A stretch of DNA of 64,000 nt from Nitrospirota bacterium (GTDB lineage: Bacteria; Nitrospirota; JACRHJ01). This document shows, piece by piece, positions 5,960 through 59,046 of the stretch. Position 1 is the stretch's first letter. Every line of letters begins with the position of its first letter. The stretch lies in contig JACRHJ010000013.1 of the NCBI GenBank assembly GCA_016212105.1, positions 46,782 through 110,781 on the forward strand, read 5' to 3'. Below the pieces are notes generated by a model, which was not told where the DNA came from, did no database searches, and saw only the letters and a program-made list of their open reading frames with translations. A program made the position numbers and the translations under genes.

Positions 5960-6277
5960 TTGACCTCCGGTAATTAATTGTGCGGGCGCGGTTTTTCGCG
6001 CCCTTCCAAACTGTAGGGGCCGACCGTCGTGTCGGCCCTTGCGGTTGTTATTATGTAGGGGCGGGCCTCCGTGCCCGCCCTTGCGGTTTATTTGTTCGTC
6101 ATTCCCGCGAAGGCGGGAATCCAGGAAGTTGTAGGGCGCGACGCCCCCGGCGCGCCGGAATAAGGTGCGGGCGCGGAATCCGCGCCCCTACAATATTCAT
6201 ATACAGGCAGATTCTTCGCTTCGCTCAGAATGACACCAAAGAGGGCGGGCACGGGGACCCGCCCCTACATAAAATCC
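5960..6277. repeat. Intergenic mosaic of short hairpin repeat modules (families F, C, D, A, E, F, J, D)
   Basis: tgtaggggccgaccgtcgtgtcggccc; tgtaggggcgggcctccgtgcccgccc; gtcattcccgcgaaggcgggaatcc; tgtagggcgcgacgcccccggcgcgcc; ttcgcttcgctcagaatgacacc; gggcgggcacggggacccgcccctacataaaa. All recur elsewhere in the window. Confidence 0.85.
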
Positions 6278-8460: not shown

Positions 8461-8948
8461 GGTGGGCTACGCCCCACCATTGCATATTGGATTTTGGTTC
8501 ACTGTAGGGCGCGACGCCCCCGGCGCGCCGAGGGTTGTCATTGCGAGGAGTCCCGCGCTTCGCGGGACGACGCGGCAATCTCCACCATAATAATACAAAC
8601 GGAGGAGGTTGCTTCGCTCCGCTCGCAAAGACAGATAATAACATGAAGGGCCGACACACGGGTCGGCACCTACATAAAAGCATGGCGGGCAATGCACGCC
8701 CTACAACTAATGTTGCAGGGGGCCGTACCAGGCGAAGCGCGTGTCAGCCCAACCTGTCACCCCCGTGAAAACGGGGGTCCATTTTAACCTTGCGCGGGAA
8801 AATGGATTCCCGCTTTCGCGGGAATGACAACCTTGAAAGGTCTGTCATGGCGGGCAATGCCCGCCCTGCAACTTCCTGGACCCCGTGTCAAGCACGGGGC
8901 GACAAGCATAATCCGTCATTCCCGCGAAGGCGGGAATCCAGGAATTTT
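8461..8948. repeat. Intergenic mosaic of hairpin modules (G, E, C, G-like, B, A, G-like, H, A)
   Basis: tgtagggtgggctacgccccacc; tgtagggcgcgacgcccccggcgcgccg; gggccgacacacgggtcggcacctacataaaag; gtcacccccgtgaaaacgggggtcc; ggattcccgctttcgcgggaatgac; ccccgtgtcaagcacgggg; gtcattcccgcgaaggcgggaatcc. Confidence 0.85.
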
Positions 8949-9476: not shown

Positions 9477-10409
9477 ATGGCCGCCAAAATATATGACGGG
9501 GTACTGGAGCTTATCGGCAAGACGCCGCTTGTGCGGCTTGTCCGGATGACCGGCGAGAAGGACGCGGCGGTCTATGCAAAGGTCGAGGGCGCGAACCCCG
9601 GCGGGAGCGTCAAGGACAGGATAGCGCTCTCGATGGTGGAGGAGGCCGAGAAGTCCGGCCACCTCAAGCCCGGCGGGCTGATAATAGAGCCGACGAGCGG
9701 GAATACCGGCATCGGCCTGGGCATAGTCGCGGCCATCAAGGGCTACAAGCTGATACTGACCATGCCGGAGACGATGTCCGTCGAGCGCAGGACGCTCCTT
9801 GCGGCGTACGGGGCGGAGCTTGTGCTGACCCCCGGCCCGGAGGGGATGCGGGGCGCGGTGGTAAAGGCGGAGGAGATAGCGGCCGCCAACCCCGGCAGCT
9901 TCATACCCCAGCAGTTCAACAACCCGGCGAACCCGGAGGTCCACAGGAAGACGACGGCGAGGGAGATACTCTCCGCGCTCGGCCCCCGGATAGACACGTT
10001 CGTCGCGGGCGTCGGCACCGGCGGCACCATCACCGGTGTAGGCGAGGTGCTCCGCTCCAAGAACAAGGACATAAAAATCGTCGCGGTCGAGCCGTCGGCG
10101 TCGCCCGTGCTGTCCGGCGGCACGCCCGGCCCGCACAAGATACAGGGCATAGGCGCGGGCTTTGTCCCGACGGTCCTGAACACGCAGATATACGACGAGA
10201 TAATACAGGTGACGAACGAGGACGCGGCGGATACAGCGAGGCGTCTCGCCGCCCAGGAGGGCATACTCGCCGGCATATCCTCCGGCGCGGCTCTTTTCGC
10301 CGCCCTCGCGGTGGCAAAGAGGCTCGGCAAGGGCAAGAACGTCGTCGTCATACTCCCGGACAGGGGCGAGCGCTACCTCAGCACGGGGCTGTTCGGGGGC
10401 GGGGCGTAG
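9477..10409 (+). CDS. cysK: Cysteine synthase (O-acetylserine sulfhydrylase)
   Basis: GKTPLVRL..., [10 protein letters not shown] (PLP lysine), [20 protein letters not shown]; 310 aa. Confidence 0.9.
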
Positions 10410-10410
10410 A

Positions 10411-10735
10411 TGTAACTTCCTGGGCTCCGTGTCAAAGCCTGCCCTGAGCCCCGGCTTTATGCATACCGGGGTAAACTCCGCCGAATGGGCACGGGGAGAC
10501 ACCAAAAGCCTGTCATTCCCGCGAAAGCGGGAATCCAGCGACGTTGCTTTTATCGTACCATTGAGAAAGGCAGGGCCGACACACGGGTCGGCCCCTACAT
10601 AAAAACAGAACCTTCGGCGCGCCGGGGGCGTCGCGCCCTACGAAATACCGCAGTGGGGGCCACACAGAAGTTCTTGGGCCGCCTTCTTACAAGAAGGCGG
10701 GACTTGTATCGTTAAAGCTGGCGTTTCTCATGCGC
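10411..10735. repeat. Intergenic mosaic (H with nested N insertion, A, C, E, K)
   Basis: ccgtgtcaaagcctgccctgagccccggctttatgcataccggggtaaactccgccgaatgggcacgggg; gtcattcccgcgaaagcgggaatcc; gggccgacacacgggtcggcccctacataaaaac; ggcgcgccgggggcgtcgcgccctac; agttcttgggccgccttcttacaagaaggcgggactt. Confidence 0.85.
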
Positions 10736-10772
10736 CGTTGACCACAACCTGTTCTGACAGGGGGAGAGTGAT

Positions 10773-11237
10773 ATGCAGTTATCGACCAAGGGGCGGTATG
10801 CGGTCAGGGCTATGTTCGACCTGGCGTTTTATTCGCAGGGGGAGCCTGTCCCGCTGTCGAGGATATCGGAGCGGGAGGAGATATCGCTCCATTACCTTGA
10901 GCAGCTCTTCAACAAGCTCCGTAAGGGCGGCGTGGTCGAGTCCGTGCGCGGCCCGTCCGGCGGGTTCAAGCTTGCGAGGAAGCCCTCCGAGATCTCCGTG
11001 GAGGAGATAATCAGCATCGTCGAGGGTCCGATAGTCCCGGTCTCCTGCCTGGAGCACAAGGACAAGGACAGGGTCTGCCACAGGGCGGAGAAATGCGTCA
11101 CGTTCATCCTCTGGAAGCGGCTGGGCAAGAACATAACCGAGTTCCTGTCCTCGGTCACGCTCCAGGACCTGGTGGACGAGGCGAGGGAGCTTCTCGACTC
11201 CGGGAAGGTCACGCACGACTATATGTTCTACATATAA
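10773..11237 (+). CDS. Rrf2-family transcriptional regulator (IscR/CymR-like, Cys-containing)
   Basis: MQLSTKGRYAVRAMFDLA... wHTH, SGGFKL, Cys residues C92/C101/C107; adjacent to cysK. Confidence 0.85.
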   Translation: MQLSTKGRYAVRAMFDLAFYSQGEPVPLSRISEREEISLHYLEQLFNKLRKGGVVESVRGPSGGFKLARKPSEISVEEIISIVEGPIVPVSCLEHKDKDRVCHRAEKCVTFILWKRLGKNITEFLSSVTLQDLVDEARELLDSGKVTHDYMFYI

Positions 11238-11239
11238 GT

Positions 11240-11400
11240 TCTTGTGTCGCCCCGTGCTTGACACGGGGTCCAGGAAGTTGTAGTTGCCCGATTTATCGGG
11301 CGGTTGTCAATGCAGGGCCGACACGCGGGTCGGCCCCTACATAAAAACAAGAACTTCCTGGATTCCCGCCTTCGCGGGAATGACGGCTATACTTGCAATA
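11240..11400. repeat. Intergenic mosaic (H, O, C, A)
   Basis: ccccgtgcttgacacgggg; ttgcccgatttatcgggcgg; gggccgacacgcgggtcggcccctacataaaaac; ggattcccgccttcgcgggaatgac. Confidence 0.8.
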
Positions 11401-14262: not shown

Positions 14263-14544
14263 ATGAAACTCACGCCCATGCAGGTAAGGTCTCTGTCGGA
14301 CGAGATGGTGTCGCAGCTGTCCAGGCACGGCCTTGTGAAGCTCAAGGTACCGGCCGAGACGGCCTCGGCGATGGTCGAGAAGGCCCTGACCGACGACCTC
14401 CAGGCCGAGGACAGGCTGAACGAGGAGGTCGAGAAGATACTGAAGGCCCACGAGAGGGACATCGCGGCGGGCCGCATGGACTACAAGACGATGTTCGACC
14501 TCGTCAAGAAGAAGCTCGTGCGCGAGCGCGGCCTGGTACTATAG
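14263..14544 (+). CDS. Small conserved protein, DUF507-like (paralog 1)
   Basis: 93 aa. Shares the pattern M+L..xx..LS....L...G...L.....ED...EV.K.....R.I..G....D.MF with the next gene. Confidence 0.5.
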   Translation: MKLTPMQVRSLSDEMVSQLSRHGLVKLKVPAETASAMVEKALTDDLQAEDRLNEEVEKILKAHERDIAAGRMDYKTMFDLVKKKLVRERGLVL

Positions 14545-14610: not shown

Positions 14611-14886
14611 ATGCGCCTTTCGGAAGACAAGATAAGCCACCTCTCGCACGTCGCCTTCGACGCGCTGGTCAAGGGCGGCGCGGCCGAGCTTCTCGCGGAC
14701 GACGCGAAGGTGCGCCGCGAGCTGAAACAGCTCATCGCGCGCCGCGTTAAGGAGGAGGACGAGGTCGGTGACATCGTCAGGAAGAAGATACAGTCCTACT
14801 CGCGCCGCATAATGGAGGGCAGCCCGGAATGGGACGTGATGTTCCGGAAGCACTACGAAGAGGAGATGAACAAGCGGGGGAAGTAG
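14611..14886 (+). CDS. Small conserved protein, DUF507-like (paralog 2)
   Basis: 91 aa: MRLSEDKISHLSHVAFDALVKGG...GSPEWDVMFRKHYEE. Paralogous to 14263..14544; GGAG RBS. Confidence 0.5.
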   Translation: MRLSEDKISHLSHVAFDALVKGGAAELLADDAKVRRELKQLIARRVKEEDEVGDIVRKKIQSYSRRIMEGSPEWDVMFRKHYEEEMNKRGK

Positions 14887-14887
14887 C

Positions 14888-15140
14888 CTCGTTTGCCTTT
14901 ATGTAGGGGCAGGTCCCCGTGCCTGCCCTGCCTGTCACCCCCGCGAACGCGGGGGTCCGGTGACTTGGTTCCGGGCTTGTTTCTTGATTGACGAAAGTCC
15001 CTGGATTCCCGCTGGAGTTTACCCCGGTACTCCTAAGGCCGGGGCGGGAATGACGTTCAACTAAAACGTGAATTGCCGTACCTTTTCTTAACTCACAAAA
15101 GTTCTTGGGCCGCCTTCTTTCAAGAAGGCGGGACTTTGTT
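14888..15140. repeat. Intergenic mosaic (D, B, A with nested N insertion, K)
   Basis: tgtaggggcaggtccccgtgcctgccc; gtcacccccgcgaacgcgggggtcc; ggattcccgc[tggagtttaccccggtactcctaaggccgggg]cgggaatgac; aagttcttgggccgccttctttcaagaaggcgggactt. Confidence 0.85.
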
Positions 15141-17271: not shown

Positions 17272-17372
17272 GACACTTCCACGTCCCGCCTTTTTGTAAA
17301 AAGGCGGCCCAAAAACTTTCGGCAGATTGCATTGTTCCATGCCGCCTGAACTGCTGGTACTGCAAAATTCTA

Positions 17373-20124: not shown

Positions 20125-20410
20125 TCCAGATTTGACACCCGCCGATTCCTCCGGTAATATTTATTCAACCCGCCGGGTTGTCATTCCCGCGAAAGCGGGA
20201 ATCCATTGGAAAAGCATAAAGCCAAAATGGACCCCCGTTTTCACGGGGGTGACAATCAAGGGATAAGTAGTAGGGTGGGCTGCGCCCACCAATAATAATC
20301 GGTGGGCATAGCCCACCCTACATGTTCGAGGTCTTTGTAGGGCGCGACGCCCTCGGCGCGCCGAGCCGTCAGACGATCGGTGCATAGCCCACCCTACATA
20401 TACAGGAGCG
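20125..20410. repeat. Intergenic mosaic (A, B, G, E, G)
   Basis: gtcattcccgcgaaagcgggaatcc; ggacccccgttttcacgggggtgac; tagggtgggctgcgcccacc...ggtgggcatagcccaccctaca; tgtagggcgcgacgccctcggcgcgccg. Confidence 0.85.
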
Positions 20411-23943: not shown

Positions 23944-24068
23944 GGTGCGACGCCCCCTCAAGCCGATTGTCATTCCCGCGAAAGCGGGAATCCATTGTAA
24001 TGGCCGAGTCAAATTGGACCCCCGTTTTCACGGGGGTGACAGGCAGGGCCGACACACGGGTCGGCCCC
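23944..24068. repeat. Intergenic mosaic (E-like, A, B, C)
   Basis: tgtagggtgcgacgccccc; gtcattcccgcgaaagcgggaatcc; ggacccccgttttcacgggggtgac; gggccgacacacgggtcggcccctacatgaaag. Confidence 0.85.
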
Positions 24069-24071
24069 TAC

Positions 24072-24710
24072 ATGAAAGCAAGAAGATACACCTTGCCCGA
24101 AGACGCCTACAACATAGAATCCGGCGAGGACAAGGCCTGGCGCGAGCTGGCCGCCGCCGGCCCGGAGTCGGTCGTGAAGCGGAGCCTCGCTGCCTACGAC
24201 GCCGCGTCCGGCAGCTACACCCTGACTGTCTTCGGCGAGGAGTACCTCGTTTCACCCGCCACGCGGACCATATCCAACCTCTCAAACCCGTCACGCGCTG
24301 ACGAAATCCTGCTACGCCTCGCTGTACCCGTCTACCTCGTGAACGCCCGCGCGGTTGAGCCGTCCGGCGTGCTGGTCAAGGAGTTCACCGGCGGCGAGAT
24401 ATTCCTCAAGGGCACACACGTCCTGCCGACGGACGAGATAGCGAAGAAGTACGGAAGCGACGGTGATTATTTCCTGAGGGCGGGGATGGCGGAGCTTGGC
24501 GGAGCGCCGGTGAGGCTGGGTGATGCGGCAATCGGGTTCAGGCCGTTCCCGCGCGTCTCGATGACGATGATACTCTGGCTCATGGACGAGGAGTTTCCCG
24601 CGCGGGCGAGCCTTCTCTTCGACGGAAACGCGGACAGGCACATGCCTATTGACGTGGTCTGGGCGGCCGCCCTGCTGGCGTGTGAGAGGATGCTGAAGAT
24701 CCTGAATTAA
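24072..24710 (+). CDS. Hypothetical protein (212 aa)
   Basis: ATG 24072 immediately after the repeat block. Host-like GC; no family recognised by eye. Confidence 0.55.
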   Translation: MKARRYTLPEDAYNIESGEDKAWRELAAAGPESVVKRSLAAYDAASGSYTLTVFGEEYLVSPATRTISNLSNPSRADEILLRLAVPVYLVNARAVEPSGVLVKEFTGGEIFLKGTHVLPTDEIAKKYGSDGDYFLRAGMAELGGAPVRLGDAAIGFRPFPRVSMTMILWLMDEEFPARASLLFDGNADRHMPIDVVWAAALLACERMLKILN

Positions 24711-24716
24711 TATCAG

Positions 24717-25322
24717 TTAAGATATAACCGTTGATTTAAATGCACTTTGAATGTCTTCGATAAACTTCTTGAAACTATTATCTCGTTTTGATGCGAGTTT
24801 TACATCCATTTCTTTTGCTAAATCTCCTCCGTATTCGGCCCCGCCTCTACGTGGCCTTATCCCGCCAGCAATAAAGGCATCCCTCAACATCTTTTTGTAA
24901 ACATCCTTCTCGCATTTTCCAAGTTGCGGGGTATCGGGGGTAGGTATGTTGCCGACCGTCGCCAATGCTTTGCAATCCAATAAATACCAGCACTCGATAT
25001 GTGGCTCTGGTAAAGCCAGGACAAGCGGTGTCAATCCTAATGCATCGCCGGTCTCTTTTTCTACAAGTTTTCGTTTTCCGTTATAGCCAGAACAATTGGC
25101 ATCAACCGAAACCACGACAACATCGTATTTTATAGCACGGCCTATTTTCAACCCGCTCAAATACCGATAGTAGGTCCCCAACGATGCACCTTTTTGATCG
25201 TTAAGGACAACTATTTCGATAGCAATTTTCTTATCGGCGGCGACTCGTTCGATTAAACCGCAGATTATTTCTTTCTGCGCGATGTCCTCCAGAAACACGG
25301 CGACTCGAAGAATTCTACCCAC
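24717..25322 (-). CDS. DUF4276-family protein (TOPRIM/OLD-like, AbiLii-like) in a low-GC island
   Basis: GRILRVAVFLEDIAQKE (N-terminal acidic strand), DVVVVSVDAN (DxD-like), HIECWYLLD (E-x-W motif). Preferred start is GTG 25322 with GGAG 6 nt upstream, overlapping the upstream stop by 8 nt; TTG 25364 and ATG 25358 are alternatives. GC ~45%. Confidence 0.65.
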   Translation of the reverse strand: MGRILRVAVFLEDIAQKEIICGLIERVAADKKIAIEIVVLNDQKGASLGTYYRYLSGLKIGRAIKYDVVVVSVDANCSGYNGKRKLVEKETGDALGLTPLVLALPEPHIECWYLLDCKALATVGNIPTPDTPQLGKCEKDVYKKMLRDAFIAGGIRPRRGGAEYGGDLAKEMDVKLASKRDNSFKKFIEDIQSAFKSTVIS

Positions 25323-26619
25323 CGTAAACTCCGGTCGCAAAGTTCTCTTCGAGCGCATCGTCAATCTCTTGTTTCATGAATAATTCACCAAATGTGCTGA
25401 ACGGCATGATTTGCGTTCTCTGGTTTTCCCAAAGGCTTACAAATAGCTGCTCCGATTCGAAACAACGCGCAAATATGGGGGAATGCGTTGTTATGATTAC
25501 CTGCTTCTGCATCGTCTCAACATATTCAATAAACCAGTCGGCAAGCAGTTGAATCCTGCGGGGATGTACGCCGTTTTCCGGTTCTTCGTAGCCAACTACA
25601 TTCGCAGGTTTCAGGGCGGATAGTATGCTGGCGATACCAATAATCCGGAGAGTACCCTCCGAGACTACCCTTGCGGTCCTTTCCCCGTCTTCTTCCGTAA
25701 CGTGAAGCAGGAGCTGCCCATCTTTAGTACGCTCGATGAGGATATCCTTAACCCTCGGCAATACCTGGGCAAGTGATTTCACCAATGAAGCGAACTGCTT
25801 GGGATTTTCTGCTTCGAGAGTATTTAGAAACGCCGTCAGATTTTCTCCTCGGCTGCCAATGTTTTTCACTTCTGAAATTGGATTTGCCGCCCGCATGATT
25901 TCACGGGGTTCAAAATAATAGAACGCCCATTTTTCCATCTCCCGCTTTGCAAGGCTCATATGCTGATAATGTGGTAAATACAAAGGCGTTGATAGAATTG
26001 TATGGTCTATACCGACATCAAAATATCTGGGATGCGCCTGACCCTCCATGCGTAGCGAAAGTTTACCATTTGATTTTCCAACAAACGGGTTCCGGCTTTT
26101 TAAGGTTTCAGTGAAATCTTTTCGTAATGCTTCCAGCTTTTCATCGAATACACCTATGTTACCGGACTTCAAGTCTACCCTCAGTACAAGTCTGTATCTA
26201 AGTTGCCTGCAAAGTGCAATCCTTTCCTGCGGTGTTGAATCAAATTGAACGTCACCGTGCAGTTCATGCTTAATGTCATCTTTGCTATCGATGTACGGCT
26301 TGCGAATAGCCTTTATTTCTTCTTTAAGTTCTTTTTCCGTATCTTCATCAATCTCAAGGTCGACCTCGAAAGTTATGTCTCTGCTTCCGTATTCATCGGA
26401 GGGGGTCCAGCCGTAAATACACTCTAGTGGTAATCCCCTATGAGAGGAAAAAGCCTTAGTCAGGGTGGGGTTGGTAACAGTGCTTGAGAGCAGGGCCAAA
26501 GCGTCGAGCAGGTTACTTTTGCCCGTGGCGTTCGGCCCCATGATAACGGCAAGCGGGCCGATAGTCAGTTCGAAATCCTTGAACGACTTGTAACCGTCAA
26601 TATAAATGCGTCTTATCAT
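25315..26619 (-). CDS. AAA_21/AAA_15-type ABC ATPase (OLD/AbiLi-like)
   Basis: MIRRIYIDGYKSFKDFELTIGPLAVIMGPNATGKSNLLDAL (Walker A); VVGYEEPENGVHP (Walker B/D-loop); H-loop ITTHSP. Start set at ATG 26619 by the family N-terminus (ORF track gives 26676). GC ~45%. Confidence 0.8.
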   Translation of the reverse strand: MIRRIYIDGYKSFKDFELTIGPLAVIMGPNATGKSNLLDALALLSSTVTNPTLTKAFSSHRGLPLECIYGWTPSDEYGSRDITFEVDLEIDEDTEKELKEEIKAIRKPYIDSKDDIKHELHGDVQFDSTPQERIALCRQLRYRLVLRVDLKSGNIGVFDEKLEALRKDFTETLKSRNPFVGKSNGKLSLRMEGQAHPRYFDVGIDHTILSTPLYLPHYQHMSLAKREMEKWAFYYFEPREIMRAANPISEVKNIGSRGENLTAFLNTLEAENPKQFASLVKSLAQVLPRVKDILIERTKDGQLLLHVTEEDGERTARVVSEGTLRIIGIASILSALKPANVVGYEEPENGVHPRRIQLLADWFIEYVETMQKQVIITTHSPIFARCFESEQLFVSLWENQRTQIMPFSTFGELFMKQEIDDALEENFATGVYGG

Positions 26620-26701
26620 ATTTGCATGCCTTTTCCATCGGTAAACCTGAGAGAATGCCGTCGCCAAGTACGACATGCTATCGGAAACCTTCCGCCACCC
26701 C

Positions 26702-27079
26702 CTACTTCTTCACAAGCGAGCTGACCAGCTTGAGCAGCTCGGCCGTCTGTATGGGCTTCGAGAGGTATGCGTTCGCGCCGAGCGCGAGGCCCTTCTTCCT
26801 GTCCTCTTCCGCGCCCTCGGTCGTGATTATTATTATGGGTATCTCCCTGTACTGGTCGTTGCCCCTGATGAGCGAGACGAGCTTCAGGCCGTCCATGATG
26901 GGCATGTTGATGTCTGTAAGGATAAGGTCGAACTTCGCCGTCGAGAGCTTCTTGAGCGCGTCTATGCCGTCCGAGGCCTCGATTATCTTCGAGCCGTGCA
27001 CCCTCTTCAGGGCGAACGATATGAGCTGCCTCATGGTCGGTGAATCCTCAACTACAAGAAAATGAATATCGGGCATCAC
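26702..27079 (-). CDS. cheY: CheY-like single-domain response regulator
   Basis: HFLVVEDS...DLILTDINMP..DG...K motifs; 125 aa. Confidence 0.85.
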   Translation of the reverse strand: MMPDIHFLVVEDSPTMRQLISFALKRVHGSKIIEASDGIDALKKLSTAKFDLILTDINMPIMDGLKLVSLIRGNDQYREIPIIIITTEGAEEDRKKGLALGANAYLSKPIQTAELLKLVSSLVKK

Positions 27080-27103
27080 GTCCTCCGTAAAGTTTAACCG
27101 GGC

Positions 27104-28003
27104 TTACTCGCCGGCGGGTTTGTCCTTCATCAGCTCCAAAAAGCTCTGTATGGTTACAAGCTTCCTCTCGGACTGGGAGTACAGCTTCGACGAGAATATA
27201 GCCGTCGCCGCGTGCCCCGCGAGCATGGAGAACAGCTCGTAGTCCACGTCCGTGAAGCTCGGCTTCTGGAGGAGCAGCTTGTATATGACTATCACGCCAA
27301 TGACGTGCTCCTTTATCTGGAGCGGTATGCAGACTATCGGGTTTTGCAGGTCGTCGCCCGGCACGGAGGAGATGTCCTCCTCGAAGAAGCTGTCGCCGGA
27401 GAGGGCGACGGAGCCTATCCGCCCCTCGCCGATGGGCACGGCCGGCATGTCCTCGATGGGTATGCCCTCGGTGGCCACGGCGGTCAGGACGTTGGTCTTC
27501 TCGTCCATGAGCATGACCGCGAACCTCTCGGCGCCGACCAGGTTCATTATGATCTCGAGGACGGTCTTGACCGCCTCGCCGAAGTCGAGCGTGGAGTGGA
27601 GCTGGTAGCTCGCAACGTAGAGGTTGGCGAGGTTGTTATTCTCCATCTCGACCTCGATGTACTTCTCGGCGAAGTCCTTGTTCTCCATCTCGACCTCGCG
27701 GTAGCGCTCCATCAGGCGGCGGTTCTCCTCCTCGAGGACGGCGACCTTGTCCTGGAGCGGCTTCAGGTTGCCCGGGCCGCTGGTCCTTATCATCCGGTTT
27801 TCCTCTTCGAGCTGGACCACCTTGAACCGGAGCTTCTCGTTCTCCTTCAGGACCTCCTGGGTGAACTCCTCACCCTTCCTGAACACCTGGAGGAACTCCT
27901 CCGCCTTGTTCTTGATGTGGTTGAACCCGTCCTTCCCGTCTTTCTGGTCCACAACTGCCTCCCTCTTATCGTCCGAATAAAATATCAGTCTCTTTGTCAG
28001 CAA
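27104..28003 (-). CDS. Coiled-coil plus GAF-domain protein of the chemosensory cluster
   Basis: N-terminal heptad-rich region (LEEENRMIR...LEEENRRLMERYREVEMEN) and a C-terminal GAF-like domain. Confidence 0.65.
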   Translation of the reverse strand: MLTKRLIFYSDDKREAVVDQKDGKDGFNHIKNKAEEFLQVFRKGEEFTQEVLKENEKLRFKVVQLEEENRMIRTSGPGNLKPLQDKVAVLEEENRRLMERYREVEMENKDFAEKYIEVEMENNNLANLYVASYQLHSTLDFGEAVKTVLEIIMNLVGAERFAVMLMDEKTNVLTAVATEGIPIEDMPAVPIGEGRIGSVALSGDSFFEEDISSVPGDDLQNPIVCIPLQIKEHVIGVIVIYKLLLQKPSFTDVDYELFSMLAGHAATAIFSSKLYSQSERKLVTIQSFLELMKDKPAGE

Positions 28004-29104: not shown

Positions 29105-29300
29105 CGGCCCTCGTTGATTCTGGTTTATGTAGCTGCCCGATTCATCGGGCGTTTTTAATAGCGCCCACAACTGAGCGGGTTACAACTGTTTGTCACCCCC
29201 GTGCAAACGGGGGTCCATTTTGACGTTATTCATGAAAATGGATTCCCGCTTTCGCGGGAATGACGATATCGAGAGTTGGCGCGGGAACTATCCCTGCCAA
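29105..29300. repeat. Intergenic mosaic (O, B, A)
   Basis: ctgcccgattcatcgggcg; gtcacccccgtgcaaacgggggtcc; ggattcccgctttcgcgggaatgac. Confidence 0.8.
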
Positions 29301-36164: not shown

Positions 36165-36350
36165 CCGGCGGTTGATTACCTAAATCCCCCATCCTCTGAT
36201 AAGAGGGGGGCTGGGTGGTGTTATTAATTCAGCAACATAATAGGCAAACTTCCTGGACCCCGTGTCAAGCACGGGGAGACGAACAAGCACACGTCATTCC
36301 CGCCCCGGCTTTAGACATACCGGGGCAGGCTCCAGCGGGAATCCAGTGAC
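36165..36350. repeat. Intergenic mosaic (M, H, A with nested N insertion)
   Basis: cctctgataagaggggggctgggtggtg; ccccgtgtcaagcacgggg; gtcattcccgc[cccggctttagacataccggggcaggctcca]gcgggaatcc. Confidence 0.85.
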
Positions 36351-36961: not shown

Positions 36962-39859
36962 CTACTTGTATTCTATGCCGTAGATCTGCTTCATCATCTT
37001 CCGCACGCCCTCGTAGTCCGAGTCGGAAGACTTGACGAAGCCGTCGTACTCCGGGTCTATCGCCCGGAGCGCCTTCGCGGCGGCGGGGTCCGTGACCTTC
37101 ATGGCGGCCAGCGCCTCCCGCAGCTGCTCCCGCGTTGCCTTGTCCAGGTTCTTGCCGGCGACAACGTTGAAGTTCGGGATGTCTCCGGAGACGTGTACCA
37201 CGCGGAGCCCCTCCTCCTGGTGCTGCCTGGCGATGGACACCGCCATGCCGCCGGCGTCCGCGTCGCCCTCCAGCACCGCCCTGACCACCTCGTCCTGGCG
37301 GTGCATGTACTTGTATGACTTGAGGTCCTGGAGCTTGATCCCGGCCTCTGCCAGCACCGCCCTCGGCATCAGGTGCGAGGTCGAGGACTTCTCGTCCCCG
37401 AACGCGAACGTCCTGCCGGCGACGTCCGCGAGCGAGTTAACGCCGCTGCCCTCTCGCGTCGCGATCACCGAGTTCGTGGACGGGCGGCCCTTGGCGGACG
37501 CGGTGACGAGCACCTTTGCCCCGAACTTGTGCCTCGCCTCGACGTACGTTGTCGGGCTCATGTAGCAGATGTCCGTCCTGCCCTGCCCGAGGTCGTTCAC
37601 GGTCTCCGACATGTCGTGGCCGGCCACCACCTCGACCTTGACCCCGAGCCTGTCGGACAGGTACTCGGCGAGCGGGGTGAAGTGCCTCCTCATCGCTGAC
37701 GCGTCCTCTATCGGTATCACGCCCATCCGGAGCGTCTTGTCCGCGAGGTTGTATTCCGACATCAGCACGAAGTGGTTTATCTCCTCCCTGAGGACGTCTG
37801 CCTGCCTGGTCAGCTCCGTGACTGACTGGTCCATCTCGGACGCGAGCGTTACGGACTGAGCGGTTATGTCCCTTATCTTCTCTATCGCGCCTACTATCTC
37901 CTGGCTGCCCTTCCTCTGCTCGGACGTCGCGGAGGCTATGTGCTGCACCTTCTCGGAGACGTTCTCGACCGCCATCGTGATCTGCTTGCTGCCCTTGGCC
38001 TGCTCGGCCATCGCGTTACGCACCTGCTTGGCTATCTCGCTCATCTTCTCCGAGGCCATCATTATCTGCTCGGTGCCCTTCGCCTGCTCCTGCGTCGCCT
38101 TGAGTATGTGCTGCACCATGTCGCTGATGGACAGCATCGCGTCCGAGACCTGGCGTATCCCCTCGGCCTGCTCGACCGTCGCCTTCTCGATGCCCTTCGA
38201 CATGCTGGCCGACTTCGACGACGACTCGACTATCTTGACCAGCGCGTCCTTTGCCTCGTATGCTATCTTAACGCCCTGCTCGACGCTGTCGCGGCCGCTC
38301 TTTATGGACACGACCGCGTCCCTCGCCTCGGTCTGGACCGCGCCGATTAGCTTCGCTATCTCGGACGTGGACGAGGACGTCCGCTCCGCCAGGTCCTTTA
38401 TCTCGCTCGCCACGACCGCGAAGCCCTTGCCGTGCTCGCCCGCCTGGGCGGCGAGTATGGCCGCGTTAAGCGCGAGGAGCGACGTCTGGTCCGTGACCTC
38501 GTCGATGACGTTCAGTATCTCGCCTATCTCCTCCGAGCGGCCGCCGAGCTGCTCTATGACGTGCGCGGCCTTGACGACAGTGTCCTTTATCTCCTCCATG
38601 CCCTTTATGGTCTTCTCTACCGCCCTCATGCCGAGCTCAGACGCCTCGGCCGTGACCTTCTCGGACAGCCCGGTGGACTCTTTCGCCACCGACTCGACCT
38701 CCTTGATGGACGCGCCCATCTCTGTCGCGGACGCAGTGGTCTCCTCGGCCGCAGACGACAGGACGTCGACGTTCTCGGAGACCTGCCTGACCGTCGCGGC
38801 CATCTCCATGATGGAAGAAGACGTAGACTCGGTCGAGGCGGACAGGTCGTTCGTGATGCTCGCCACCTCGTCTATCGAGGCGGCCATCTCCATGATGGAA
38901 GAGGAAGACGACTCCGCGGAGGACGAGAGAGACTCGACGCTCTCCGCGACCTCGCGTATGGAGGCGTTCATCTCCTCCATCGACGAGGAAGTGGACTCCG
39001 TCAGCTCCTGCTGCACCAGCGCGCCCTCTGATATCTTCTTCGAGTTTATCGCTATCCGCTCTGTCGCGTTGGTCACGCTTATGGAGGCGTCCTTTACCTT
39101 GCCGAGCATGTTCTTGAGGTTCGCCACCATCGTGTTGATGGCGCCGCCGAGCGCGCCCAGCTCGTCCTCCGTCTTTACGTCTATGGTCTTGGTCAGGTCG
39201 CCCTTGGCGATCTGCGTCGCGGTCACCACGAGGTAGGATATCGGGTCCGTTATGAACCTCGTGATGAAGAACGTGAACGCGAAAATGGCGATGACCAGCG
39301 AGACGACGCCGATGAGCACCGACCTTTTCACAAGCTGGTCCTTCTTCGCGCCAAGCTCCTCGTAGCCGAGCCCCAGCCGGAGCGCGCCGATGTGCTTGTC
39401 CTCTGCGTCCTTGAGCGGTATGACGGCGTCGTAGTACTTCTTGTCCTTGTAGGTGAAGGTCCTGTACTTCCCCTCCTCCACCTCCTTGGCCGCAGCGGCG
39501 CTGACCGCGTCGTCCATAACCTTCCCGACCTGCCCCGGGTCGTCGGCGTAAAGCACCTTGCCGGCCGTGTCGGTGATGATGCAGTACCCGATGTTCTCGT
39601 GCTTCTGGGTAAGTACCATGCACTCGTCGCTCACGCCCTCCAGCGAGTCGAGCGTAAGCCCGAGGTTCAGCGCCTTGGACAGGTTGTTCCTGAACTCCTG
39701 CCCGACCACGAACGCCTTGTCCAGGAACGCGTCCGTGTAGCTGCTCGTGAACCCGTAGGTCAGCGCCACGGTCAGCAGTGTGACCACGAGCACCAGCATC
39801 CCGGTGACCATGCCGAGCGCCCTGAATTTCAGCGATTTAATGGTGAAGTCCAGCTTCAT
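36962..39859 (-). CDS. Methyl-accepting chemotaxis protein with a periplasmic sensor, HAMP, long MA domain and a C-terminal PhnD/SsuA-like substrate-binding (PBP) domain
   Basis: The periplasmic domain resembles the sensor of the kinase at 17447. MA domain ([34 protein letters not shown]). C-terminal ~270 aa: MGVIPIEDASAMRRHFTPLAEYLSDRLGVKVEVV...CYMSPTTYVEARHKFG...TFAFGDEKSSTSHLMP (phosphonate-binding-protein-like). Confidence 0.85.
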   Translation of the reverse strand: MKLDFTIKSLKFRALGMVTGMLVLVVTLLTVALTYGFTSSYTDAFLDKAFVVGQEFRNNLSKALNLGLTLDSLEGVSDECMVLTQKHENIGYCIITDTAGKVLYADDPGQVGKVMDDAVSAAAAKEVEEGKYRTFTYKDKKYYDAVIPLKDAEDKHIGALRLGLGYEELGAKKDQLVKRSVLIGVVSLVIAIFAFTFFITRFITDPISYLVVTATQIAKGDLTKTIDVKTEDELGALGGAINTMVANLKNMLGKVKDASISVTNATERIAINSKKISEGALVQQELTESTSSSMEEMNASIREVAESVESLSSSAESSSSSIMEMAASIDEVASITNDLSASTESTSSSIMEMAATVRQVSENVDVLSSAAEETTASATEMGASIKEVESVAKESTGLSEKVTAEASELGMRAVEKTIKGMEEIKDTVVKAAHVIEQLGGRSEEIGEILNVIDEVTDQTSLLALNAAILAAQAGEHGKGFAVVASEIKDLAERTSSSTSEIAKLIGAVQTEARDAVVSIKSGRDSVEQGVKIAYEAKDALVKIVESSSKSASMSKGIEKATVEQAEGIRQVSDAMLSISDMVQHILKATQEQAKGTEQIMMASEKMSEIAKQVRNAMAEQAKGSKQITMAVENVSEKVQHIASATSEQRKGSQEIVGAIEKIRDITAQSVTLASEMDQSVTELTRQADVLREEINHFVLMSEYNLADKTLRMGVIPIEDASAMRRHFTPLAEYLSDRLGVKVEVVAGHDMSETVNDLGQGRTDICYMSPTTYVEARHKFGAKVLVTASAKGRPSTNSVIATREGSGVNSLADVAGRTFAFGDEKSSTSHLMPRAVLAEAGIKLQDLKSYKYMHRQDEVVRAVLEGDADAGGMAVSIARQHQEEGLRVVHVSGDIPNFNVVAGKNLDKATREQLREALAAMKVTDPAAAKALRAIDPEYDGFVKSSDSDYEGVRKMMKQIYGIEYK

Positions 39860-44003: not shown

Positions 44004-46871
44004 CTACTGTATCCTCCGCACCATCTCCCTGACGCCGTCGTAGTCCGAGTCGCGGGACTCTATGAAGCCGGTGTAGTCCTTGTCGAGCGACGTGAGGATG
44101 AGCTTCTCCTCCGCGGACCTCGGCGAAAGCGAGGTGAGCGCGAGCTTCAGCTTGTCGGCGAGGACGGTGTCGAGGCCCGGCCTCGCGCAGAAGTTGAACT
44201 CCGGTATGTCGTCGGAGGTCTTTATGAACCGGAGGCCCTTCTCCTTGTACTGGTTCGCGGTGGTCTCCCTGAGGCCGCCCGCGTCCAGCTCGCCCAGGAG
44301 CACCGCCTTGGCCACGTCGTCGTGGTGGCCCAGGAAGCGGTACTCCCTGAGGTCCGTAAGCTTGACGCCCGCCTTGGCGAGCATGTAACGCGGCACCAGG
44401 TAGCTGGACGTGGACATCTCGTCGCCAAAGGCGAACGTCCGCCCCTTCAGGTCCTCGATGCGCTTGACGTCGCTGTCCTGCCTCGTGACTATCATCGTGT
44501 GGGTGTACGGGACGCCGTTCCTCATCGCCTTCGCGAGGAGCGACACTCCGTAATGCTCGTGCGCCTCTATGTACGTCGTCGGCGTCATGTAGCAGATGTC
44601 CGCGACCCCCGTGCCGACGTCCTTTACCGCGTCCGTGAACGACGAGGTGAGCTTGAAGACCACCTCGCGCCCGACCCTGCGGGAGAGGTACGCCGCGAGC
44701 GGCGAGAACTTCTTGTACATCTGGGCCGGGCTCTCCAGCGGCACCAGGCCGAGCTTGATTATCTCGGAGCCGGCCCCGGTAATCCTGAATGTGCCGACCT
44801 CGTCCTTCAGCTCCTCAATGTGCCTGGCGAGTTCCTCGACCGCGAGGCCCATCTCGGAGGCCAGCGTCTCGTTCTCGAGCGCGACGTCCCTGATGCGCTC
44901 GACCGAGCGGACCATGTCCTCGCTGCCCTTCCTCTGCTCGTTAATCGCGTTCGCTATGTGCTGGGCCTGCTGGTTGGTGTTCTCGACCGCCATTATTATA
45001 AGGTCGGAGCCCTTGGACTGCTCGGCGGTCGCGGTCCGTACGTGCCTCGCCACCTCCTTGACCTTGTCCGCCTCGCGCAGTATCTGGTCGGAGCCCTGCG
45101 TAAGCTCGGACGTCGCCCGCTGTATGGACTGGACTATGTCCCTGGTGTTGACCATCGCCTCGGCGACACGCTTGGCGCCCTCCGCCTGCTCCATCGTCGC
45201 GTCCTCTATCCGCTTGGACATCTCGGAGGACTGCGCCGACGACTTCACTATACCCTCCAGCACGTCCTTGGCCTGGTAGACGACGGCCTGGCCCTCCTCG
45301 ACCGCGGCCTTGCCGGACTCCATCGCCTGCACCGCCTCGGAGGCCTCGGCCTGGACGGTGGCGATGAGCTTGGAAATCTCCTGCGTGGACGACGCGGTCC
45401 TCTCCGCCAGGTCCTTTATCTCGTCAGCGACCACCGCGAATCCCTTGCCGTGCTCGCCCGCCTGGGACGCGAGTATGGCAGCGTTCAGCGACAGAAGCTC
45501 CGTCTGGTCGGTGACCTCGTCTATGACGTTCAGTATCTCGCCTATCTGGCGCGAGCGGCCGCCGAGCCGGTTGATGACCTCAGCCGAGCGGTTGACCTCG
45601 TTCTTGATCTTGCTCATTCCCTCGATGGCGCGCTCCATCGCCCCCATACCGAGCCTCCGGGCGTCGGTCGTGACCTTCTCCGAGAGCTGGGCCGACTCCT
45701 TGGCCGCGCCCTCGACGTCCCTGATGGAGTTCGCCACACGCGTGATTGACTCCACGCTCGTGTCGGCCGCGTCCGACAGGACTCCGACGTAGCGCGAGAC
45801 CTCACGGATGGACGCGGTTATCTGGCTGATGGACGAGACGGTCGAGTCTACCGAGGACGACAGCACCGCCGCGCTCCCCGCGATCTCGTCTATCGAGGCG
45901 GTCATCTCCAGTATCGAGGACGACGTGGACTCAGCCGAGTAGTACAGGCTGTCCGCGGACTCCGCTACGCCCTTTATCGAGGCGTTTATCTCCTCGATGC
46001 CGCCGGACGAGGACTCGACCGCGCGCGCCTGGACGTGCGCGCCCTCCGCCACCTTTGCAGAGTTGACGACTATCTGCGTAGAGACCGAGCCGACCTGGTA
46101 GCTCATCCGGTTTATCCTCTGGACGACCCTCTGGACGCTGTCTATGAAACTGTTGAAGCTCCCGGCGAGCTGCCCCATCTCGTCCTTCGACCCGGACTCC
46201 ATGCGGTATGTGAGGTCCTTGTCCCTCTCCATCTGTGTCATGACGCCGACCGCCTTCTCTATCGGTGAAAGCACGACTCTCCTGAGCCAGAGCGCGAGCA
46301 GGAGCGCGACAAGCGCGATCGCGGCAAACGCGTTCAGTATCGCCATGAGCTTGTGGTCCTTGATGTCGGCGTAGACCTTCTCGAGCGAGACGGATACGGC
46401 GAGGACGCCCTGGTACTTGTGGTCGCTCCCGTGGCAGCCCTGGCAGCTCTCCTCGTTCACGAGCGGCTTGAAGAGCGTCAGCGACCGCTTGTCCTTCAGC
46501 TCGGAGACGATGCCCGTCGCGAGCGCCTCCCTCACCCTTGCTTCGACGTCGGCGGGCGGGTCGGGGTAGCCCGCGTCGAGGTATATCTCGTCGCCGTCCT
46601 TGTTGAAGACGCGGACCTCCTTTATGCCGGACACAGTCCTCAGCTCCGAGACCATACCGCTCGCGGACTCCGGCTGGCCGGTGTTCATGACCGTCTTCAT
46701 ACTCGATATGATGGCCGAGGCCAGAAGCTCCGTCTTCGAGTGGTTGGCGGCGAGCAGCTCGGTCTCCTCCTTCTGGAGCGTCATGTATACGAGGAGCCCG
46801 AACCCGCCCATGAGCGTGGCCACGACTATCGCTATAATCTTGGTCTGCATGCGGCTGATGAACATTTTCAC
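44004..46871 (-). CDS. Methyl-accepting chemotaxis protein with a heme-c (CXXCH) periplasmic sensor domain and a C-terminal PhnD/SsuA-like PBP domain
   Basis: TM1 [19 protein letters not shown]; ~140-aa periplasmic domain containing SCQGCH (nt 46445..46431), DUF3365/Tll0287-like; TM2; HAMP; MA domain; C-terminal [35 protein letters not shown]...[16 protein letters not shown]. Paralogous to 36962..39859, with >85% nt identity across parts of the MA domain. Confidence 0.85.
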
Positions 46872-48584: not shown

Positions 48585-48855
48585 TACCTCGACTTCATGT
48601 AAAACAACCGCGAAAACCCCGCCTTCTTGTAAGAAGGCGGCCCAAGAACTTTTGTGAGATATTGTAGGGTGGGCATTGCCCGCCATGCTTTTATGCAGGG
48701 GCCGACCCGTGTGTCGGCCCCTGCCTGTCACCCCCGTGAAAACGGGGGTCCATGTTGACTTTATGCGTTACAATGGATTCCCGCTTTCGCGGGAATGACA
48801 ATACATCGTATAAAGGCGGATTCTTCGCTTCGCTCAGAATGACACCATTAAAACA
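48585..48855. repeat. Intergenic mosaic (K, G, C, B, A, J)
   Basis: ccccgccttcttgtaagaaggcggcccaagaactt; tgtagggtgggcattgcccgcc; tgcaggggccgacccgtgtgtcggcccc; gtcacccccgtgaaaacgggggtcc; ggattcccgctttcgcgggaatgac; ttcgcttcgctcagaatgacacc. Confidence 0.85.
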
Positions 48856-48858
48856 AAC

Positions 48859-50844: not shown

Positions 50845-51170
50845 GAAATCTCCTGAAAGAATCTACGACAAAGTCCCGCCTTCTTGAAAGAAGGCGGCCC
50901 AAGAACTTCTAAACGGCTTCCGTGCGAAACTCGTCGTCCCGAGCGAAGCCGAGGGACCTGCTTTTATGTAGGGGCCGACCCGTGTGTCGGCCCTGACTCT
51001 TCATTAGATTTCGTAGTGGCCGGCCTCTGAATGGCCCGTATGGAGTCCGTGCCCTAAAATTATCGTGTCGCCCCGTGCTTGCCCTCCATTGTCACCCCCG
51101 TGAAAACGGGGGTCCATTTTGACCTTGTGCATTACAATGGATTCCCGCTTTCGCGGGAATGACAAGCGTT
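50845..51170. repeat. Intergenic mosaic (K, C, H, B, A)
   Basis: aagtcccgccttcttgaaagaaggcggcccaagaactt; tgtaggggccgacccgtgtgtcggccc; ccccgtgcttgccc; gtcacccccgtgaaaacgggggtcc; ggattcccgctttcgcgggaatgac. Confidence 0.85.
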
Positions 51171-57724: not shown

Positions 57725-57885
57725 CCTCATTTCCTTCAATGGTGTCATTCTGAGCGCAACGAAGAATCCGCCTGTATCAATAAAACCATCCCTCACCCGG
57801 CCCTTCGGGCCACCCTCTCCCCTTGAAGGGATAGGGTACATTATATAAGTCCCTCTTAGTTTCAGAGGGGGCTGGGGGTGAAGGC
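57725..57885. repeat. Intergenic modules (J, M)
   Basis: ggtgtcattctgagcgcaacgaagaatccgcc (revcomp of the J family); ccctcttagtttcagagggggctgggggtg. Confidence 0.7.
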
Positions 57886-58809: not shown

Positions 58810-59046
58810 AAATCAAAACCGCCGGGCGCGGCTTTCGCGCCCGTTCCATTTGTAGGGGCCGACCTATGTGTCGGCCCTTCTTAATTATTTGTCGCCCCGT
58901 GCTTGACACGGGGTCCAGGAATTTTAAACTTCCTGGATTCCCGCCTTCGCGGGAATGACGGGCAAAGGCTGAGATTGCCGCGTCGCGTTGCTCCTCGCAA
59001 AGACAGGCAGGGCAGGGCGGGCACGGGGACCCGCCCCTACATAAAA
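58810..59046. repeat. Intergenic mosaic (C, H, A, P, D)
   Basis: tgtaggggccgacctatgtgtcggccc; ccccgtgcttgacacgggg; ggattcccgccttcgcgggaatgac; cgcaaagacagg; gggcgggcacggggacccgcccctacataaaa. Confidence 0.85.

Follow-up and report, generated by a model that had tools for sequence, protein, structure and literature searches.

The 28-nt Neisseria Transformation Sequence (NTS; consensus CGTCATTCCCGCGMAVGCGGGAATCYRG) forms hairpins that are bound and cut, solely as single-stranded DNA (ssDNA), by SsnA, a 94-aa GIY-YIG protein (Nat Commun 2025, PMC11893778). SsnA cuts 3 nt upstream of the NTS, that is, 7 nt upstream of the palindrome; binding depends critically on the C after the palindrome, the identity of the loop does not matter in vitro and loop extensions are tolerated (PMC11893778). 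The related SRM repeats are described by the pattern HGTCWYN(0-2)YYVSBRHN(0-5)WNVSBRGN(0-2)RNCYNB, in which the loop is limited to 5 nt, and dRS3/NTS in Neisseria was already known as a recombinase target; nested or composite forms are not mentioned (PMC11893778). Here we analyze a 64-kb stretch of contig JACRHJ010000013.1 (assembly GCA_016212105.1, Nitrospirota bacterium), referred to in its entirety as the window. Its GC content is about 62%, its best protein matches point to a Nitrospirota metagenome-assembled genome (MAG), and its intergenic spacers are packed with hairpin modules. At three sites, the apex of such a module is occupied by a second, short hairpin that we call N.

Integron attC sites are functional only as folded single strands, with extrahelical bases that set strand choice and an apex that varies in size. 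N differs in lacking R and L boxes (GTTRRRY), an integrase and a cassette context, and its apex is a conserved module shared between copies. In the IS200/IS605 "peel and paste" elements and palindrome-associated transposable elements, subterminal hairpins are recognized in ssDNA, the two ends are distinct, insertion takes place 3′ of a fixed tetra- or pentanucleotide without target duplication, and strand specificity is linked to replication. N shares with them the absence of target duplication, but it is a single 30-nt hairpin with variable flanks, and no TnpA was found among the window ORFs (open reading frames) scanned. Other elements target hairpins or repeats, including IS1111/IS110 in repetitive extragenic palindromes (REPs), the Neisseria Nf phage in dRS3 and group IIC introns after terminators. 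All are of kilobase size, bring their own enzyme and insert beside or within the stem, whereas N is a 30-nt cassette that replaces a loop. Measured against miniature inverted-repeat transposable elements (MITEs), N is a stem-loop with an asymmetric tail and has neither terminal inverted repeats nor target-site duplication, although larger repeats with terminal inverted repeats contain N in Burkholderiales. A further parallel is found in REPs, REPINs and bacterial interspersed mosaic elements (BIMEs) with their REP-associated tyrosine transposases (RAYTs), which share a short conserved box beside a lineage-specific GC palindrome, inverted doublets, mosaic clusters and recognition as ssDNA hairpins (Nunvar 2010, PMC2817692; Bertels and Rainey; Ton-Hoang 2012). 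The box of REP/RAYT systems is GTAG (or GTGG); that of N is GAGCCTG or GAGTTTA. To our knowledge, a REP within the loop of another REP is not a described feature.

Three N hairpins at the apices of other hairpins

We searched the window with the N core pattern CCCCGGCYTTANNNNTACCGGGG, allowing up to three mismatches. Three matches were obtained, all of them exact (Table 1); 0.07 were expected, and none of 100 shuffles reached three. Each copy lies at the apex of another hairpin, which bears out the original prediction that N sits inside the modules it had named A and H. At the two A-type sites, the arms CGTCATTCCCG and GCGGGAATCCAG enclose N where a GAAA or GAAG loop would normally be, and in the predicted DNA fold of both composites the inner stem is stacked with an outer stem of 8 bp, leaving a bulge of 10 nt on the 3′ side. 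The composite that carries copy 3 is 86% complementary over 66 nt to the copy at 14991-15056 and has an empty H-type SRM just upstream. All three N copies are intergenic, the first site beginning 16 nt 3′ of the cysK stop codon, and their orientation relative to the flanking genes is inconsistent (one sense, two antisense). Long-loop forms of the A, A2, H or S arms occur in the window at these three sites only.

The hosts of N belong to a known type of repeat. The SRM pattern matches the window 18 times, at modules of the A, A2 and H types, compared to 0.74 matches expected and a maximum of four in 100 dinucleotide shuffles, and the exact NTS consensus matches four times. The A, A2 and H modules are thus identified, on sequence, as NTS/SRM repeats. 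As in Neisseria, each hairpin has an orientation, with a GTC box on the 5′ side and a C on the 3′ side, and copies are clustered in intergenic mosaics. Box, arms and 3′ C, the parts that SsnA requires, are all retained by the host in the composites; the SRM pattern matches none of the three composites. N itself lacks the GTCWY box, carries GAGCCTG or GAGTTTA upstream on the box strand and has a conserved 11-nt loop as opposed to one of 0-5 nt. Its box strand is laid out like that of the NTS, with a 7-nt leader before the palindrome; the next base is C in 26 of 44 copies (among the matches listed, to which counts over N copies and loci refer from here on).

Site 1 is more elaborate. The original prediction described an H module interrupted by N at 10425-10482; N does lie inside H arms, but the structure extends to 10496 and includes an intermediate cassette, M. 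Read on the minus strand, M has the imperfect hairpin CCCATTCGGC...GCTCAGGG and, after it, the tail CAGGCTT, which a minus-strand tail scan located at 10444. M without N was found inside NTS arms at locus L154 (GCAAAGCCTGCCCTGAGCCCGCCGAAGG), and M is also present at L076 and L003. Because M occurs without N at other loci, we count site 1 as a three-level nest. N runs opposite to the M whose apex it occupies, so that the order is H > M(-) > N(+). Empty H copies, with the sequence CCCCGTG TCAAG CACGGGG, are found at several places in the window.

N as an oriented cassette with a tail

A scan of GTDB genomes for the N core returned at least 43 loci. Two of these, L007 and L022, were excluded, as the core matches there by chance, in a coding region that the two loci share by orthology and without the tail described below. 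The remaining 41 loci and the window, collected with the exact core pattern, give at least 44 copies. Besides the window, they come from at least 18 genomes of Nitrospirota, Pseudomonadota and Latescibacterota, and the carriers comprise five Nitrospirota MAGs, Burkholderiales, other Betaproteobacteria, Methylophilaceae, Coxiellaceae, another Gammaproteobacterium and a Latescibacterota chromosome. OZ252100.1 and the MAGs CAVWIL01 and JAJYJM01 are examples of genomes with N.

The copies share one layout, in which a 6-bp GC stem (CCCCGG/CCGGGG) encloses an 11-nt loop (CTTTA-NN-C-R-TA) and is followed by a 7-nt single-stranded 3′ tail, CARRCTC. Two parts of this layout were left unconstrained by the search pattern. 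The 7 nt after the palindrome read C in 38, A in 37, R in 40, R in 44, C in 36, T in 35 and C in 31 of the 44 copies, with CAGGCTC and TAAACTC as the two main forms, and C occupies loop position 14 in 43 of 44. Outside the cassette, on both sides, the nucleotides vary. Since a few copies with no recognizable host (for example, L030 and L043) retain the tail, it is part of the cassette rather than of the junction. It is therefore largely shown that N is an oriented cassette of about 30 nt, made up of palindrome, loop and tail, and a real shared family.

Searches elsewhere returned nothing. Degenerate N copies with one to three substitutions were not found in any locus, a result of little weight as the loci held no second copy at all. 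The N core had no match in viral contigs, and blastn of the A+N consensus against PLSDB plasmids gave none. Rfam at the gathering threshold had no match in the whole window, and at E<=1 it produced two chance-level matches (E 0.27-0.71) in 10380-10780, neither overlapping N. We also considered N as an attC site, a tRNA- or tmRNA-derived fragment, a CRISPR repeat or a terminator, and rejected each. A literature search for the N and tail strings found nothing that describes them, only an unrelated plant-virus match, and one for spurious-ORF peptides of the hairpin (IPAFAGMT and similar) found nothing.

Judged by inspection of the flanks, the arms that enclose N belong to at least eight hairpin families. 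They include the NTS type; GTCATTCCCG..; GTCATTCTGAG...CGAAGAATCC; GTCATTGCGAG...GAAGCAATCC; GTCATCCTGAA...GAAGGATCAC; GTCGTCCCCGCGAAG...; in reversed polarity, GGATCCCGG...CCGGGATGAC (also given as GGATCCCGG..GATGAC) and others; GGACCCCTG...CAGGGG; the fully symmetric GTCGTCCCCGCGAAGAGCCTG-N-CAGGCTCTTCGCGGGGACGAC with a 21-bp stem; and a MITE-internal context. In other Nitrospirota MAGs (L008 and L014), N is enclosed by S-type arms. Relative to the GTC box of the host, N is forward in about 13 copies and reversed in about nine. A first, loose helix score hardly exceeded its controls (6.3 versus 5.2-5.6) and was discarded; in place of this score and of a count based on minimum free energy (MFE), we used tests of fixed geometry and of contiguous pairing. 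When the 5′ arm was required to adjoin N directly and the 3′ arm to begin 9-11 nt past the palindrome, at least five contiguous pairs were present in 10 of 44 copies, compared to 0.16 expected. Watson-Crick runs of at least six between the flanks occurred in 14 of 43 copies, compared to 2.7 in shuffled sequence and 3.5 at random genomic positions, and complementary runs of at least seven in eight of 43, compared to 0.5-0.8 in controls.

The selectivity for hairpin loops that had been proposed is thus supported insofar as N is found almost only at apices, within many unrelated arms and in both orientations. Survivorship could explain part of this location, as the loop is the sole spot where an addition spares the host, and targeting is not a necessary conclusion. 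That the apparent copies arose by chance, or are longer A and H variants of independent origin, is refuted. Chance matches do occur, as the two tail-less coding-region loci demonstrate, but the excess of exact matches in the window, the agreement of 44 copies at unconstrained positions and the presence of N in at least eight types of host all speak for one shared module, as originally claimed.

A wider class of apical cassettes, and their junctions

To avoid circularity, we scanned metagenomes with a pattern anchored on the NTS arms only (GTCATTCCCGC-N18-48-GCGGGAATCC), which yielded 142 long-loop NTS hairpins. Tandem half-arms or two adjacent NTS account for 44. In another 32, the tail [G/A](TAAACTC or CAGGCTC)C[A/G] comes after an inner GC hairpin, 24 contain a like cassette in inverted orientation, and the other 42 include several near-variants or double cassettes. 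A GC hairpin with the tail, in either orientation, therefore occupies 56 of the 98 non-tandem hairpins. The exact N core was not among the 142; close relatives of it were, such as the N-like form CCCCGATTAARGCAYTCGAGGG+CAGGCT, which was present in either orientation. Compensatory changes preserve pairing in at least 12 different inner stems, with the tail constant throughout; double changes affect four of the five inner-stem pairs. Covariation of the inner stem was 0.366, compared to 0.125 in shuffles, none of 500 of which reached it, and at most 0.115 in slid controls. Thus, it is largely shown that N is one member of a larger class, GC hairpins with the same tail, at the apex of Ssn-related hairpins. 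GTAG-REPs and SRMs have the same organization, a constant short box beside variable palindromes.

Two further observations were made on the long-loop hairpins. The 44 tandem hits include mini-arrays in which a 5′ half arm with a spacer of 7-11 nt (for example, GTCATTCCCGC-CACTGGT) is repeated head to tail two to four times before a single loop and 3′ arm, a half-site duplication; examples among the 44 hits are L100:245-305, L137 (several), L053:386-452, L062:5885-5945, L081:5327-5484 and L123. In addition, single-domain GIY-YIG ORFs of 84-96 aa (PF01541, E = 1e-15 to 1e-18) were present in eight of 120 loci picked solely for a long-loop NTS hairpin (L047, L059, L072, L109, L117, L128, L137 and L161), and in L047 the hairpin lies 14 nt upstream of the gene.

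We compared junctions between host and cassette. In the forward arrangement, to which both A sites belong, CCCGC/GAAA/GCGGG becomes CCCG/CCCCGG...CCGGGG CAGGCTCC R/GCGGG; in the inverted arrangement, two or three bases of the host loop may remain. Paralogues in the Burkholderiales MAG JANPNU01 show an empty and a filled SRM loop about 120 nt upstream of N. L027 has GTCATTCCGGC-GTAG-GCCGGAATCC, and L031 and L039 have a 38-nt filler, CCTTCGACGGGCTCAGGATGAGCCGGGCACTTGCCCGG, instead of GTAG, the loop being replaced and not split. In a second Burkholderiales MAG, JAYVUH01, N is central in a MITE-like repeat of about 190 nt with terminal inverted repeats of about 30 nt (ATTCGATTTCTAATTCATTGG... / ...CCATTAATCATTTATT), which is present on at least six contigs (L019, L023, L024, L028, L036 and L001). 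Other Burkholderiales units that hold N are inverted SRM pairs bounded by ACTTCTAAAAAC inverted repeats.

Relatives whose CysK is 82-85% identical keep the NikR-ApbE-FmdE-CysK-Rrf2-LysR synteny. Their cysK-rrf2 spacer measures 34-70 bp, compared to 363 bp in the window, and their ApbE-FmdE spacer 14-113 bp, compared to about 527 bp. Since the spacers of the relatives are short and free of mosaics, synteny places the mosaics as gains of the window lineage. This agrees with the proposal that the modules are, or recently were, mobile, although whole composites often multiply, as in Burkholderiales, and N need not hop alone.

Other repeats and genes in the window

Coordinates of the N sites and of other features are collected in Table 1. 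About 17 modules, called P, are classical GTAG-type REPs of two subtypes, TGTAGGGGCCGAC-N6-GTCGGCCC and TGTAGGGGCGGG-N6-CCCGCCC. None has an apical cassette, and their presence suggests a RAYT elsewhere in the genome. A2-type SRMs (GTCACCCCCGTGAAAACGGGGGTCC) are paired with an inverted NTS-type SRM about 20 nt away in REPIN-like doublets, 83-nt units that are 82-88% identical. S-type modules have an apex of the GCGAAGC type, a DNA mini-hairpin of unusual stability with tandem G.A mismatches at its flanks. A terminator-like repeat with a conserved flank lies at gene ends, and some pairs of its copies are up to 100% identical.

Three observations concern genes. A stretch of low GC content (0.52-0.54 compared to about 0.62) holds a two-gene island that encodes a 453-aa AAA_15/AAA_21 ATPase, matching PADLOC HEC-01A (E = 1e-54), and a weak DUF4276 protein; the two are probably a horizontally acquired candidate defense pair. 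Two small adjacent ORFs match positions 1-93 and 95-181 of the DUF507 profile, so that the gene has been disrupted or the pair is split naturally. Finally, 84-nt periodic repeats in the coding sequence of two paralogous genes for MCP-like (methyl-accepting chemotaxis protein-like) chemoreceptors of about 960 aa probably reflect repeated protein segments.

Table 1. Composite hairpins, other repeats and selected genes of the window, in window coordinates
Feature	Coordinates	Strand	Details
Nested composite H[ M[ N ] ] (site 1)	10425-10496		Outer H arms CTCCGTG 10425-10431 and CACGGGG 10490-10496; H loop remnant TCAA 10432-10435
Middle cassette M	10436-10489	-	Plus strand AGCCTG + CCCTGAGC ... GCCGAATGGG; N in M apex
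N copy 1	10449-10479	+	CCCCGG CTTTATGCATA CCGGGG (core, from pattern search) 10449-10471; tail TAAACTCC 10472-10479
A-type (NTS-type) hairpin with N copy 2	15001-15055	-	CGTCATTCCCG / CCCCGG CCTTAGGAGTA CCGGGG / TAAACTCCA / GCGGGAATCCAGG; N core (pattern search) 15022-15044; tail 15013-15021; arms 15045-15055 and 15001-15012
NTS-type hairpin with N copy 3	36292-36346	+	CGTCATTCCCG 36292-36302; N core (pattern search) 36303-36325; tail CAGGCTCCA 36326-36334; GCGGGAATCCAG 36335-36346
Empty host example	10511-10538	+	TGTCATTCCCGCGAAAGCGGGAATCCAG; NTS/SRM hairpin with GAAA loop, one of the 18 SRM matches
Empty H-type SRM	36253-36281	-	Just upstream of the copy 3 composite
Empty H copies	36260-36278; 8883; elsewhere in window
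Exact NTS consensus matches	6097-6124; 8914-8941; 11358-11385; 58933-58960	+; +; -; -
P modules (GTAG-type REPs)	e.g. 6013; 6055; 10572-10599; 11314-11341; 24045-24072; 50968; 56200; 56247; 58852		About 17 sites
REPIN-like doublets	8748-8830; 29184-29266; 48719-48801; 51083-51165; inverted 20178-20261 and 23967-24048
S-type modules	6201-6245; 48810-48857; 57733-57777		GTCATTCTGAGCG-AAG/CAA-CGAAGAATC
Terminator-like repeat	1283-1325; 10663-10705; 15099-15139; 17285-17327; 48618-48660; 50875-50917		GGGCCGCCTTCTT-N4-AAGAAGGCGGG; conserved flank AAGAACTTTTGTGAG
Low-GC stretch	24000-28000
Two-gene island	24717-26676	-	AAA ATPase and DUF4276 protein
DUF507 ORFs	14263-14544; 14611-14886	+
84-nt repeats in MCP-like genes	38712-39013; 45814-45947

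Origin and significance of the apical cassettes

Because the layout of their box strand is like that of the NTS, we interpret the cassettes as hairpins that an ssDNA enzyme recognizes, and we tentatively favor a scheme in which they are installed at the host loop in single-stranded DNA and then copied with the composites. The enzyme, encoded elsewhere in the genome, might be a divergent Ssn-type GIY-YIG nuclease or a Y1 enzyme. It would recognize a box strand in which the leader GAGCCTG or GAGTTTA precedes the palindrome and usually a C, an arrangement similar to that of GTAG-REPs. Installation would take place at the only unpaired spot of the folded host hairpin and would replace or invade its 4- to 5-nt loop, in either orientation. 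The composites would afterwards be copied as units alongside other repeats. Nesting could recur, as in H>M>N, and apical addition would be favored since both hairpins stay functional. More speculatively, the boundary of the cassette may coincide with an Ssn-like cut site, the length of the 7-nt tail being the distance at which SsnA cuts from its palindrome.

Several results weigh against this scheme. Our sampling used an exact pattern, which by itself imposes conservation of the stem and of most of the loop. An MFE-based count of enclosure, which we discarded, did not differ from shuffles (25 of 43 versus about 22), and predicted folds beat shuffles only modestly (z of -1.4 to -2.4), with no clean fold at site 1 (z = -0.35). 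The match between tail length and the SsnA cut distance may be a numerical coincidence. N loop variants track the type of host, both S-type hosts having TGCA. The larger N-containing units of Burkholderiales multiplied as wholes, and much of the spread is thus of composites. We found no orthologous pair of empty and N-filled sites, the closest available relatives (those compared above for synteny) lacking the whole mosaic. Contrary to the precise insertion into a loop that had been claimed, the host loop of the forward arrangement is absent and not split, which fits gene conversion or template switching too; target duplications, looked for at the junctions, were not seen, and the boundaries are ambiguous by 1-3 nt. 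Searches for an enzyme point the same way. With four single-domain GIY-YIG ORFs from the metagenome loci as queries, tblastn detected no GIY-YIG (Ssn) ORF in the window, even at E<=10. Pfam scans of window ORFs left unassigned by eye returned chemotaxis, signaling and housekeeping domains and no Y1_Tnp, transposase or nuclease. Apart from orthologous or paralogous contexts, no protein family recurs beside N in an all-against-all BLAST of ORFs within 2 kb at 43 loci. The single-strand, hairpin-recognizing mechanism of the original prediction consequently stands in part. The hosts are hairpins of the NTS/SRM kind, for which recognition as ssDNA is known from Neisseria SsnA only, but no gene of the IS200/IS605, IS91, RAYT or Ssn type was found in the window; a cognate enzyme, if there is one, must have its gene outside it.

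The main alternative, which we regard as possible but doubtful, dispenses with a dedicated enzyme. Apices would be exchanged by replication template switching or short-tract gene conversion, anchored on identical arms of 8-11 nt or on GC microhomology; the trigger may be Ssn breaks in ssDNA with homing-like repair, and composites would amplify passively with SRM or MITE units. Wholesale replacement of the loop without target duplication, at the A+N sites and in L027 versus L031 and L039, fits this alternative well, as do the 1-nt junction overlap (a shared C), the frequency of half-arm tandem duplications or adjacent NTS (44 of 142) and the way in which N variants track host type. At L029 and L018, moreover, the stem is a perfect 21-bp palindrome in which the tail has gained its complement, a product that quasipalindrome correction would yield. 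What it explains poorly is the conservation of the tail and of a loop position across phyla and, for the tail, next to at least 12 unrelated inner hairpins, which argues for sequence-specific recognition; transfer among unrelated arms, and inversion, are also hard to obtain by arm-anchored conversion alone. The strict form of the earlier model, in which N is a miniature non-autonomous transposon that a Y1/HUH enzyme of the IS200/IS605, RAYT or IS91 type mobilizes to a precise loop target, seems improbable to us. N does share a box-plus-palindrome layout with GTAG-REPs and the absence of target duplication with IS200/IS605, it occurs in both orientations and many hosts, and with some 17 GTAG-type REPs in the window a RAYT probably exists somewhere in the genome. 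However, N lacks GTAG, is a single hairpin without distinct left and right ends, has no conserved target tetranucleotide in its flanks and loses the host loop instead of splitting it, and no Y1 transposase is encoded in the window or near the 43 N loci.

N might instead be a selected functional motif, an RNA element or DNA-binding site for termination, mRNA stability or nucleoid binding, that was recruited repeatedly into intergenic hairpins. Strong conservation of loop and tail across phyla, and the intergenic position of every window copy, one of them just after the cysK stop codon, would suit such a role. We give it little credence, as there is no Rfam match over N, the orientation relative to genes is inconsistent, N is absent from the orthologous spacers of relatives and rides in MITE-like repeats, and SsnA-type hosts act on ssDNA, not RNA. 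A bolder extension of the ssDNA-enzyme scheme, which we consider unlikely, is that cassettes consisting of a GC hairpin and CARRCTC are pan-phylum hyperparasitic mobile elements of about 30 nt. They would colonize SRM/NTS loops by loop-directed cutting and joining of ssDNA, with an enzyme that reads the 7-nt tail, and repeated rounds would produce multi-level nests. If this is true, no mobile DNA unit smaller than these would be known.

Both the host repeats and their nuclease have been described before, as have REP, BIME and NIME (neisserial intergenic mosaic element) mosaics and doublets. The apical cassette class, its conserved tail and multi-level nesting appear to be undescribed, being absent from the one relevant paper (PMC11893778) and from what the literature search for the N and tail strings returned. 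Because its loop is limited to 5 nt, the published SRM pattern misses composite sites. Ssn-related repeats were recognized only in 2025, and we show here that oriented hairpin cassettes, a conserved class of their own, systematically fill the dispensable loop of these repeats, in either orientation and sometimes recursively. Occupied loops are a structural clue to the ssDNA transactions behind the multiplication of these repeats, and the 7-nt tail offers a defined sequence for finding the responsible protein. The natural loop-extended variants of the NTS also bear on the proposed use of Ssn nucleases as programmable ssDNA tools.

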